Shown piece after piece: positions 60,447 to 64,000 of a DNA stretch of 64,000 nt. The translations under genes were made by a program, and so were the position numbers. How positions within the stretch are numbered: the first letter of the stretch is position 1; every line of letters starts with the position of its first letter. The stretch comes from Escherichia phage vB_EcoM_NBG1, in sequence record MH243438.1. One strand, 5' to 3'. The notes below the pieces were generated by a model. That model saw only the letters and a list, made by a program, of their open reading frames with translations, was not told the origin of the DNA and did not search any database.

Positions 60447-63400
60447 ATGGCTACATTAAAACAGATACAATTTAAAAGAAGCAAAGTAGCAGGAGTTAAT
60501 CCTACTGCAGCACAATTAGCCGAAGGCGAATTAGCGATAAACTTAAAAGATCGAACTCTTTTTACCAAAGATGACCTCGGTAATATTATTAGCCTAGGCT
60601 TTGCTAAGGGCGGGGATATTAACGGTAATGTAACTCATGTAGGTAACTATACTCAGACAGGTACATTTAATTTAATAGGCTCACAAAATGTTGCATCTGG
60701 TGGATATATCGAATTTGCTTATAAGGCCACCGGAGTTGGTTCTTGGGCTGGTCAACACACGGCAAAAGCCCCTATTTTCATGGATATTTCCGCATCAACC
60801 GCTACTTCAGAATATAACCCGTTAATTAAGCAACGTTATAAAGATGGTACTTTCTCATTAGGGACCTTAGTTAATGAAGGCTCAATGAAGATGCATTATA
60901 TTGATGAAACAGGCACTTCGAAATATTGGACCTTTAACCGTAATGGTAATTTTCAAGTTGATTCCGGAAATTTATTAGTAGCTAATGGATATTTAGTTAC
61001 TCAAAGTAATATTGAAACTAAAGCTGGTTCTTTAATTGGTCCTAAAGTTATTACCAAAAATATCAATGTGAGCACTAAATCTTGGGACACTAATATTGAT
61101 ACTGCATATGATTTAGTTTCATTACCGACTTGGCAGTATACTCCAACCGAAACGGATTTGGATACTAATGGTATAAACTACCTTCGTAAATTCCGCGGAC
61201 ATGTTTCTTCTGCTATTTTCCATGAAATTGCTGATGCTCGTTCAGGTAAACCACAGAATATTTCATATTGGACTGGACGCAATGCTGAAGTTTATCAATG
61301 GTCTTATACCACCGACGGGCGTATGTCTGTTGCTAATTCGATAGGTGTAGGTCTTGCCGATGTCGGCTCCCAAGGGCGTTATCCTTTGGCAACATTTGGT
61401 AAAGGTATTGCAATTGGTGATAATGACACTGGTGTTAAATGGGTTCGTGACGGTGTTATTGATTTGGTTGCTAATGGCATTTCGGCGGGTACAATAAACA
61501 GCAATGGTATTAACAGTACTAAAAAATTGATGGTTGGTTATAGCCGTGATTCCGGAACTACATGGGATTACCCAAATAACAACCAAGCAATGTTTACTGC
61601 GCGTACCGATGTTGATGGTAATAATAATGGTGATGGTCAAACTCATATCGGTTATAGCAGTAATTCTAAAATGTATCACTATTTCCGTGGCACGGGTCGT
61701 ATGTCCATTAGTATGGGTGATGGGCTTCTTGTTGAGCCTGGCATTTTAGATATTAAAACCGGTTCAAATTCGTTAAATTTGCGTGCTGATGGTACCATCG
61801 CTTCTGTTCAAACATTAAAACTTAATAATGGATTATATTTTAATGGTGATGGAACTAATGCTTCTCTAGTTTTTAAAGCAGCTTCAGGTATTGATGGCAC
61901 TAAGCAAATTTTGTGGGAAGGCGGTACTCGTGCTGGTCAGAATAAAAGCTATGTAACTGTTAAAGCATGGGGTAATTCATTTAACGCATCTGGCGATCGT
62001 AATCGTGAAACGGTTTTTGAAGTATCAGATGGGCAAGGATATTATTTTTATTCACAGCGTGTGGCTCCAAGTGGCTCTGAAACTACTGGGCCTGTTGTAA
62101 CGCAGTTCAATGGACAAGTTAATGCTAGAGGAAGTATTATTACTGACGGAAGTTTTAAAGTTAATGGATTAAGCACTTTAAATGGTGCAGTTACCATGAG
62201 CAATGGACTTAATTTAACAGGCGGTTCTTCTATCACAGGTCAAGTTAAAATTGGTGGAACAGCCGATGCATTAAGAATTTGGGATGCTGAATATGGTGCT
62301 ATTTTCCGTCGTTCTGAAGATAAATTTTATATAATTCCGACCCCAAAGGACGCTGGCGGAACTGGTGGTATTTCCAACCTTCGTCCATTTACCATGACTC
62401 TTAGTACTGGTAAAATGGAATTTAAACATGATGTTGGACTTGGTGATAACGGCTCCGGCGGAAGCATATTATTTGTAGATAACACTAACAAAGCCACTAC
62501 TAATAATGGTCGTTTATACGTTAATATGTCAAGTGATGCTATAGTGCTTAATGCTCCTACACAAGAAACATCTAACTTTATCCAAGGACGCAAAGCTAAC
62601 GTCACTAAATGGTATGTTGGTATTGGCGACAGCGGTGATTCTGTTCGTATGCATAGTTATGCATATTCCCACGGCTTGGTATTAAGTGCTAACTCCGTTG
62701 ATATTACTAAACCTCTTAAAGTCGGAAATGCTCAATTCGGTACTGATGGTAATATCACCGGTGGTTCTGGTAATTTTGCTAACTTGAATACCACAATAAA
62801 TAACCTTAAGACAGATATTGTCTCAAGTTATCCTATTGGTGCTCCGATTCCTTGGCCTACTGATACACCTCCTGAAGGTTATGCCATAATGGAAGGTCAA
62901 ACTTTTGATGTTGGCTTGTATCCTAAGTTAGCGGCGGTGTATCCTTCCGGCGCTCTGCCTGATATGCGTGGTCAAACTATCAAGGGTAAACCGAGTGGTC
63001 GTGCAGTGTTGAGTGCAGAAGCTGATGGTGTTAAGTCACATAGCCATAGTGCAAGTGCATCAAGCACAGATTTGGGTACTAAGACCACTTCTAGTTTTGA
63101 TTACGGTACTAAAACATCTTCAAGCTTTGATTATGGTACTAAGACCAGTAATACCACTGGCAACCATAACCATACAGTGAGTGGTAATACTGGTTCCGCT
63201 GGTGCGCACCAACACGCACGTTCAGGCCCTCAGATACAAGGCGGCGTACCCACTAGCATATTCTATGATGGATACAATAGTGCGGGACCAAACTTCAACG
63301 CTAAAATCACTGGATCCGTGAGCGGTGCTACTGCATCGTCGAATATGGCCAAAACTTCTTCAGATGGTGCCCACACTCATAGTTGGTCAGGAACTACAAG

Positions 63401-63584
63401 TACCACAGGTAACCATGCCCACACCGTTGGTATTGGTGCCCATACACATACTGTAGGTATTGGTGCCCACTCTCATTCGGTAGCGATTGGTTCTCATGGC
63501 CATACTATCACTGTAAATAGTACAGGTAATACAGAAAACACGGTTAAAAACATTGCTTTTAACTATATCGTTCGTTTAGCATAA
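60447..63584 (+). CDS. 37: long tail fibre distal subunit gp37 (receptor-binding tip)
   Basis: 1045 aa; C-terminal cluster of HxH motifs and a short tandem repeat ([10 protein letters not shown]). Confidence 0.9.
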
Positions 63585-63590
63585 GGAGAA

Positions 63591-63610
63591 GGGACTTCGG
63601 TCCCTTTTTA
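63591..63610 (+). terminator. hairpin GGGAC-UUCG-GUCCC plus UUUUUA after gene 37, inside the gene 38 initiation region
   Basis: Lies between the AAGGAG (63583-63588) and the gene 38 ATG (63615). Confidence 0.6.
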
Positions 63611-63614
63611 TAAT

Positions 63615-64000
63615 ATGAAACTCTATCATTATTATTTTGACACTAAAGAATTTTACAAAGAAGAAAATTATAAACCATTAAAAGGCGTAGGATTTCCGGC
63701 TCATTCGACACCAAAAAAACCTTTAGACCCTAAAGAAGGCTATGCTGTTGTATTTGATGAACGCGAACAAGAATGGGTATATGTTGAAGACCATCGTGGA
63801 AAAACAGTATGGACTTATGATAAGCAAAAAATTGTTATTGACACTCCAGGTGCTCTTCAAAATGTTACTACAGAAGAACCTGGTGAATTTGACATTTGGA
63901 CCGACGACGGGTGGAAGGAAGATGAAGCATATAAACGTGTAGTTCAACGTGATAAGAAAATTCATGAACTCTATAAATTATTCAGTGTTTTAAGTTCTCT
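63615..64000 (+). CDS. 38: tail fibre assembly chaperone gp38, 3'-truncated at window edge
   Basis: Hand-translated MKLYHYYFDTKEFYKEENYKPLKG..., open to the window end; matches the T4-type gp38 N-terminus. Confidence 0.75.
   Translation, partial: MKLYHYYFDTKEFYKEENYKPLKGVGFPAHSTPKKPLDPKEGYAVVFDEREQEWVYVEDHRGKTVWTYDKQKIVIDTPGALQNVTTEEPGEFDIWTDDGWKEDEAYKRVVQRDKKIHELYKLFSVLSS

Follow-up and report, generated by a model that had tools for sequence, protein, structure and literature searches.

An ordinary T4-type needle tip with eight predicted iron sites and a probable head exchange in gp37 of Escherichia phage vB_EcoM_NBG1

The long tail fibre protein gp37 of Escherichia phage vB_EcoM_NBG1 ends in a series of His-x-His (HxH) motifs accompanied by a short tandem peptide repeat, which raises the questions of what kind of tip this is, whether the repeat changes its length by slippage, and what the tip binds. 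NBG1 is a Mosigvirus-like relative of T4 that was isolated with a panel of 32 E. coli strains and propagated on BL21 (PMC6025944). We analyzed a 64,000-nt stretch of its genome (hereafter the window), near the end of which lies the gene concerned:

60447..63584, + strand: gene 37, long tail fibre distal subunit, a 3138-nt ORF encoding 1045 aa (ORF list, exact-sequence look-up, Pfam)

Gene 37, its neighbors and its domains

From the exact-sequence look-up, the protein was found to be the same as GenBank AWM11692.1 ('tail fiber protein', Escherichia phage vB_EcoM_NBG1). Its 5' neighbors are genes for gp34-, gp35-, and gp36-like proteins, and it aligns over its full length with T4 gp37 at 46% identity; the T4 protein, originally given as about 1026 residues, is indeed 1026 aa long. 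Pfam matches were obtained for gp37_trimer, Collar (PF07484, aa 798-845, E 4e-11), and Gp34_trimer. The phage tail fibre repeat PF03335, which most close homologues have in their precomputed domain annotation, is not among the matches of gp37 at E <= 0.01. The ORF list holds no ORF of 60 aa or more on the opposite strand under 63040-63530, and neither Rfam nor tRNA scans gave a match anywhere in the window.

The last 245 residues match the solved T4 tip (PDB 2XGF) with an E value of 1e-68, the collar and the C-terminal strand being nearly identical; 2XGF aligns at both ends of the tip, and the final 33 residues are identical to those of T4 gp37. The published limits of the T4 domains are residues 811-881 and 1010-1026 for the collar D10, 882-931 and 960-1009 for the stem, and 932-959 for the tip (PMC6957217, after Bartual et al. 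2010). When carried over by alignment, these limits divide the end of NBG1 gp37 as follows:

62823..63035, + strand: N-terminal part of the collar/knob domain D10, aa 793-863 (T4 811-881), from Pfam PF07484, the 2XGF alignment and the published T4 limits
63036..63215, + strand: outgoing (ascending) arm of the needle stem, aa 864-923, with HSH 865, HNH 907 and HQH 921 (aligned with T4 882-931)
63216..63353, + strand: distal head/tip subdomain, aa 924-969 (aligned with T4 932-959), the predicted receptor-contact surface
63354..63530, + strand: returning (descending) arm of the needle stem, aa 970-1028, with HTH 976, HAH 990, HTH 999, HSH 1008 and HGH 1017 (aligned with T4 960-1009)
63531..63581, + strand: C-terminal return strand of collar D10, aa 1029-1045 (protein identical to the T4 C-terminus)

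The collar of NBG1 gp37 is hence interrupted by the needle and the chain comes back to it at the C-terminus, as in the 2XGF fold, and 63040-63530 corresponds by alignment to domain D11 (stem and tip) of T4 gp37 to within one codon. Position 63040, from which the motif array was originally counted, falls 1 nt inside the first His codon, and 63530 is where the needle domain ends when the T4 limits are carried over. An AlphaFold2 monomer of the last 245 aa, built on a 33-sequence alignment, gave no usable fold (mean pLDDT 49.5, pTM 0.18), which is expected because the chain folds only as an intertwined trimer. The tip of NBG1 gp37 is an ordinary T4-type receptor-binding tip of a long tail fibre. 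Structures of this kind are well understood, and the protein has already been deposited publicly.

Whether gp37 or the product of the next gene contacts the receptor differs among T4 relatives, and the DNA downstream of gp37, which begins with a spacer of 30 nt, bears on this point:

63591..63604, + strand: hairpin GGGAC-UUCG-GUCCC, followed by U5, between the stop codon of gene 37 and the start codon of gene 38 (folding energy, conservation)
63615..64000, + strand: gene 38, T4-type tail-fibre assembly chaperone, its 3' part lying beyond the end of the window (similarity to T4 gp38)

The hairpin (minimum free energy -15.7 kcal/mol, z = -3.0) is kept in T4 and eight relatives, and both sides of its stem are altered in T4, moha, and AV117. 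The 128 aa of gp38 encoded up to the window end are 71% identical to T4 gp38 (E 1e-69) and had no Pfam match. At this identity, the product is a chaperone of the T4 type (lambda Tfa-like), which would stay outside the virion tip. The end of gp37 could conceivably serve to attach a gp38 adhesin as in T2 and T6, leaving receptor binding to the latter, an arrangement that is commoner in the T4 superfamily (PMC3157838) and occurs in the Mosigviruses AV109, AV111, AV114, and AV115 (PMC10844046). Such an adhesin would carry glycine-rich motifs and hypervariable segments. The downstream gene, however, has the stated similarity to a chaperone, and gp37 itself carries the complete T4-type module of collar, needle, head, and collar. 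We therefore regard a T2/T6-like arrangement as extremely improbable. With gp38 a folding chaperone and no adhesin, gp37 itself would bind the receptor.

Histidine motifs and the pairing of the two stem arms

We found exactly eight HxH motifs in gp37, the same list that had been read from the sequence originally, all of them within the last 181 residues (nt 63039-63503). Shuffling gave a mean of 0.6 motifs for the whole protein and 1.3 for the last 185 aa, and eight were reached in 0 of 5000 shuffles in either case. In T4, seven iron atoms are each held by the HxH motifs of three chains (PMC6957217, Islam et al.), and replacement of H929 or H931 by alanine is lethal (PMC6957217). All seven iron-ligand positions of T4 (883, 915, 929, 966, 980, 989, and 998) have an aligned HxH in gp37, at 865, 907, 921, 976, 990, 999, and 1017, respectively. 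The original expectation that the motifs correspond to the iron-binding ones of T4 thus holds, and so does the expectation of a tip that differs from T4: relative to the T4 needle, the outgoing arm is longer by 10 aa (one DYGTK unit), the returning arm by 9 aa (one His box), and the head by 18 aa. The 19 aa by which gp37 exceeds T4 gp37 are a net figure, made up of 37 aa gained in the needle and 18 aa fewer upstream of it. HSH 1008, which sits among the boxes with 9-aa spacing on the returning arm, is the additional motif without a T4 counterpart.

Both additions to the stem lie in tandem arrays:

63069..63158, + strand: three in-register 'A' units of 30 nt or 10 aa, T4 having two (repeat detection, copy comparison, a 10-aa gap in T4 on alignment)
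63414..63503, + strand: four HxH motifs at 9-aa spacing, giving three 'A' intervals, T4 having two (HxH positions, a 9-aa gap in T4 on alignment)

The tandem peptide repeat SFDYGTKTS, correctly placed by the original prediction within 63040-63530, spans aa 883-901 (nt 63093-63149) and was detected by TRF with period 30 and 2.4 copies. Relative to copy 1 of the 30-nt unit, copies 2 and 3 have 77% and 70% identity, respectively; between themselves they are about 63% identical by hand count, and the exact runs that they share, as read by eye, are only about 8-9 nt long. A second tandem array, not named before, has a 27-nt unit at 63429-63491 which encodes GIGAHxHxV, and a 14-nt exact repeat, GGTATTGGTGCCCA, recurs in successive His boxes.

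In homologous fibres, the chain doubles back at the head, giving six strands, and the number of HxH motifs varies with the length of the needle, as noted for phage Bas63 (PMC12609058). We then compared the two arms in a set of homologues made up of 120 sequences from a word-indexed search and 147 cluster representatives from an exhaustive search, splitting their C-termini at the head. The head was located by the sizes of the gaps between HxH motifs, the first gap being skipped, which left 238 usable sequences; two whose stem is aberrant (class 3,1,108,29) were excluded. The arms of these 238 homologues span from 61/47 to 100/84 aa and differ by only 13-17 aa (r = 0.996); those of NBG1 gp37, at 85 and 70 aa, differ by 15 and fall inside this range. 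In 238 of 238, the 10-aa DxGTK units that separate the first HxH from the second (A_up) are as numerous as the 9-aa HxH intervals on the returning arm (A_down), and the 14-aa HxH..SG..G intervals likewise agree in number between the arms (B_up = B_down). None of the 238 has arms with unequal unit counts. The A units number 1-4 and the B units 0-2, in seven architectures from A1B2 to A4B0, and the HxH count equals 3 + A + 2B; T4 is A2B1 with seven motifs, and NBG1 is A3B1 with eight (A_up = A_down = 3, B_up = B_down = 1). As the homologues are akin to each other, the effective basis of this pairing rule is seven architectures and not 238 independent cases. A chain that turns back like a hairpin within a six-stranded needle requires such equality, and changes in stem length evidently come as matched pairs.

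This observation bears directly on the slippage-driven length variation that had been suggested for the repeat, namely that SFDYGTKTS is a slippage-prone tract whose copy number changes often and thereby alters the length or specificity of the fibre. The repeat is arranged head to tail, and the number of units does range from 1 to 4 among homologues. Nevertheless, its copies have diverged to 63-77% identity with only short exact runs in common, all seven Mosigvirus relatives examined have three DYGTK units, and the unit number equals that of His boxes about 330 nt downstream in every one of the 238 homologues, so that a slip on one side would unbalance the arms. This part of the original prediction is not upheld, and slippage as the source of the repeat's variation is very improbable. 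Because unit counts are equal on both arms throughout, the SFDYGTKTS repeat is better described as one rung of a two-sided ladder than as a free-running slippage tract.

On the model of the homologous T4 crystal structure, each chain of NBG1 gp37 would run out from the collar, form the head, and double back, and three such chains, if they trimerize as in T4, would form a six-stranded needle. Each HxH, contributed by three chains, may then make up one axial His6 iron site, which predicts eight sites instead of the seven of T4. In an 'A' rung, the outgoing arm would contribute a 10-aa DxGTK unit and the returning arm a 9-aa GxGxHxHxV unit paired with it, and in a 'B' rung each arm would contribute a 14-aa HxH..SG..G unit; which particular units face each other is suggested by the antiparallel geometry. 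The third A rung would accordingly have the SFDYGTKTS repeat as its outgoing half and the eighth HxH as its returning half, with the stem extended by perhaps 3 nm relative to T4.

The eighth HxH may alternatively be no metal site at all, the needle holding seven irons as in T4 and the extra segments bulging or extending the head. The long fibre of Bas63 has six motifs, one of which is an irregular HHxH, so that the motif count need not equal the metal count (PMC12609058), and needles with eight motifs are known from sequence alone. The extra box is, however, a near-exact copy of its neighbors (GIGAHTHTV and GIGAHSHSV) which keeps the 9-aa period, and in every homologue such a box is accompanied by one more complete unit on the opposite arm. 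A seven-iron needle is thus improbable in our estimation, and eight predicted sites are the preferred reading.

The head cassette and the mosaic of gene 37

The head bears little resemblance to that of T4. Between HQH 921 and HTH 976 (aa 924-975), only 8 of 52 residues are identical to T4, and the similarity of the two heads is not significant, as 338 of 5000 shuffles reach the local-alignment score. Since the head has no significant similarity to that of T4, the contact residues determined in T4 (Islam et al.) are not transferable. A mapping of these residues obtained with BLAST and MAFFT (Y943-N951 against T4 W936-N944, placing F950 opposite the essential G943) was considered and rejected, as an alignment of the heads only takes another register. 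Close relatives of the NBG1 head are found among other phages, and the same allele is carried by 308Ecol101PP and AV113 (50 of 52 residues identical in each), JS09 (48 of 52), and moha (46 of 52). This head allele is common: with a 91-aa tip query, coverage of at least 80% was reached by about 80 phage records, of which 64 have an identity of 80% or higher, and the tip type is present in about 80 sequenced coliphages.

The DNA around the head has a different ancestry from the head itself. The closest whole gene is gp37 of vB_Eco_F27, at 98.8% DNA identity over 94% of the gene; NBG1 and F27 are identical over 63118-63191 and 63408-63493, and highly divergent between these two tracts:

63192..63407, + strand: recombination cassette carrying the head, 308Ecol101PP-like inside, with the gene outside it vB_Eco_F27-like (mismatch maps, identity runs)

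Over 63165-63499, NBG1 has four mismatches to 308Ecol101PP, and no phage record is more than 98.8% identical. The cassette is bounded by tracts that are identical in NBG1, F27, and 308Ecol101PP and that contain the HNH codons (63165-63173) on one side and the HAH/HTH/HSH boxes (63414-63476) on the other, and from the aligned sequences the crossovers must fall within these shared tracts, in His-box DNA. The last 84 nt of the gene (63501-63584) are 100% identical to T4 DNA, while Mosigvirus relatives differ there at up to nine sites; judging by this identity, the 3' end is a further small mosaic patch. Tetart and colleagues reportedly proposed, in 1996 and 1998, that conserved 'His box' DNA mediates the swapping of adhesins, and a cassette bounded by His boxes fits this older idea. 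The head may therefore be viewed as a separate cassette, for whose exchange the conserved His-box DNA on either side would have been the site of recombination.

Given these boundaries, the HxH boxes might act mainly as DNA linkers that promote head shuffling, with metal binding secondary or absent; both crossovers of the cassette lie in stretches with His-box codons, and the 14-nt repeat recurs from box to box. Against this stand the conservation of HxH in the proteins of distant homologues despite the divergence of their DNA, and the T4 counterparts, which hold iron and in which the loss of a single histidine is lethal as described above. As the main role of the boxes, DNA linkage is a distinctly improbable explanation. 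The two roles are compatible, and linkage at the DNA level complements the preferred reading of the boxes as iron sites in the needle.

One residue sets the NBG1 head apart from its closest relatives:

63294..63296, + strand: codon 950, TTC (Phe) (comparison with the closest heads)

Residue 950 is Gly in all eight of the closest heads examined (308Ecol101PP, moha, JS09, AV113, and four database proteins) and Phe in NBG1. 308Ecol101PP and AV113 differ from NBG1 at 63294-63295, where their codon would be GGC, and the exact 24-mer around codon 950 is absent from IMG/VR. Phe950 could be an adaptive mutation of the head or a sequence error.

The receptor and comparisons with known systems

We consider it highly probable that the NBG1 tip is a T4-type needle of architecture A3B1 with eight predicted iron sites and an exchanged head cassette, and that gp37 itself is the receptor binder. 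As both the head and the stem differ from those of T4, an altered receptor specificity, as originally proposed, is plausible. By analogy with other T4-type tips, NBG1 probably recognizes a porin (OmpC or OmpF), a truncated LPS core, or both. T4-type tips are associated with OmpC in the BASEL set; AV110, AV112, and AV113, with a T4-like gp37 and a variable head, are predicted OmpC binders (PMC10844046), and gp37 of the Yersinia phages TG1 and phiR1-RT is associated with OmpF (Yersinia phage review). Among the gp37 tips of Mosigviruses, dependence on OmpC was established by experiment only for AV117 and AV118 (PMC10844046), whose heads share 11-12 of 52 residues with that of NBG1. B strains of E. 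coli are without OmpC (PMC6957217), and since NBG1 grows on BL21, OmpC cannot be its sole receptor. In the AV phage paper, the BASEL paper, and the Yersinia phage review, we found no experimentally determined receptor for the NBG1 head allele.

A bolder extension would be that rungs are gained and lost only as matched pairs and hence only by cassette exchange, that the extra rung (about 3 nm) tunes the reach of the tip through LPS, that needle length is a quantised determinant of host range apart from the head, and that the change from Gly to Phe at residue 950 is an adaptive retargeting which arose from multi-host enrichment or from growth on OmpC-less BL21. We think this rather unlikely as a whole.

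[quoted passage not shown] For fibre engineering, the pairing rule says that stem length is changeable only on both arms together, and head swaps have natural splice points in the conserved His-box DNA. The rule and the cassette bounded by His boxes are tidy descriptive results rather than surprises.

Compared with known systems, NBG1 shares with the T4 tip (2XGF) the split collar, the seven T4 HxH motifs, DxGTK on the outgoing and GxGxHxH on the returning arm, the same return strand, and a gp38 chaperone, and differs from it in the extra A rung, the eighth HxH, and the longer head. The gp37 proteins of 308Ecol101PP, AV113, JS09, and moha have the same A3B1 needle and the same head allele; unlike NBG1, they have Gly950, whereas the shaft and collar of NBG1 are F27-like and its last 84 nt are those of T4. 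vB_Eco_F27 gp37 has the same A3B1 stem, and its DNA is identical to NBG1 outside 63192-63407 bar a few patches, but its head cassette is different (16 of 61 residues identical). The search for homologues returned 2582 database matches, mostly Stf proteins of lambdoid prophages and Felixounavirus-type fibres. These (e.g., Bas63) carry the same module of collar, needle, and head with HxH boxes, on other N-terminal shafts and with other heads and rung numbers (A1-A4, B0-B2).

Assortment of heads and short patches in gene 37

The distal head of gp37 (aa 924-975), the predicted receptor-contact part of its needle, belongs to the same family (ARSGPRMAAS...GYTSEGPN...) as that of the database protein P0007. 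In terms of the A and B rung types of the stem, the needle that carries this head family is A2B1 in P0007 but A3B1 in the gp37 of NBG1; therefore, heads and rung numbers assort independently. The final 84 nt of gene 37 (63501-63584) are a small T4-like mosaic patch, with 100% identity to T4; within 63494-63552, 8-9 sites are different in each of the Mosigvirus relatives F27, 308Ecol101PP, and AV113. Another short recombination patch lies in the collar region at 62993-63026, where 9 mismatches to the F27 gene, elsewhere identical, are clustered; this stretch encodes SAEADG in the window vs STEADG in F27 and is closer to T4 and AV113 than to F27.

Compared with heads of the same type, gp37 carries Gly950Phe (codon 63294-63296), and Phe950 was found in NBG1 alone among all same-type heads examined. 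The substitution appears to have arisen by two neighbouring G-to-T changes (GGC to TTC), and an exact 24-mer spanning the codon had no match in IMG/VR.

A conserved hairpin downstream of gene 37

One hairpin was located between the gene 37 stop and the start of the chaperone gene 38:

63591-63604, + strand, hairpin GGGAC-UUCG-GUCCC followed by U5

Folding computation gave an MFE of -15.7 kcal/mol (z -3.0), and the hairpin is kept in T4 and eight relatives, with both stem sides changed in the GGGGC/GCCCC-type stems of T4, moha, and AV117 and a UUCU loop in F27, 308Ecol101PP, and AV113. It was absent from the output of the consensus terminator scan. Across the whole window (1-64000), the Rfam scan found no family at the gathering threshold and the tRNA scan no tRNA gene; NBG1 is reported to have two tRNAs, which must therefore be elsewhere in its genome.

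Database proteins carrying the collar-needle module

Several E. coli proteins matching the gp37 tip (e.g., P0045, P0051-P0054, P0058, and P0064) terminate in the collar-needle module, yet their source records label them terminase large subunit, tape measure protein, ClpP-like head protease, or short-chain fatty acid transporter. Fused ORFs, mis-called ORFs, or propagated mis-annotation probably account for these names. Two 'Shigella sonnei/flexneri tail fiber proteins' (P0001 and P0002) have an NBG1-type head, with 94% and 86% identity. Their contigs, 113 kb and 166 kb long, look like T4-like phage genomes within bacterial assemblies. In both, the gp37 ORF appears to have been called short, at 450-455 aa.
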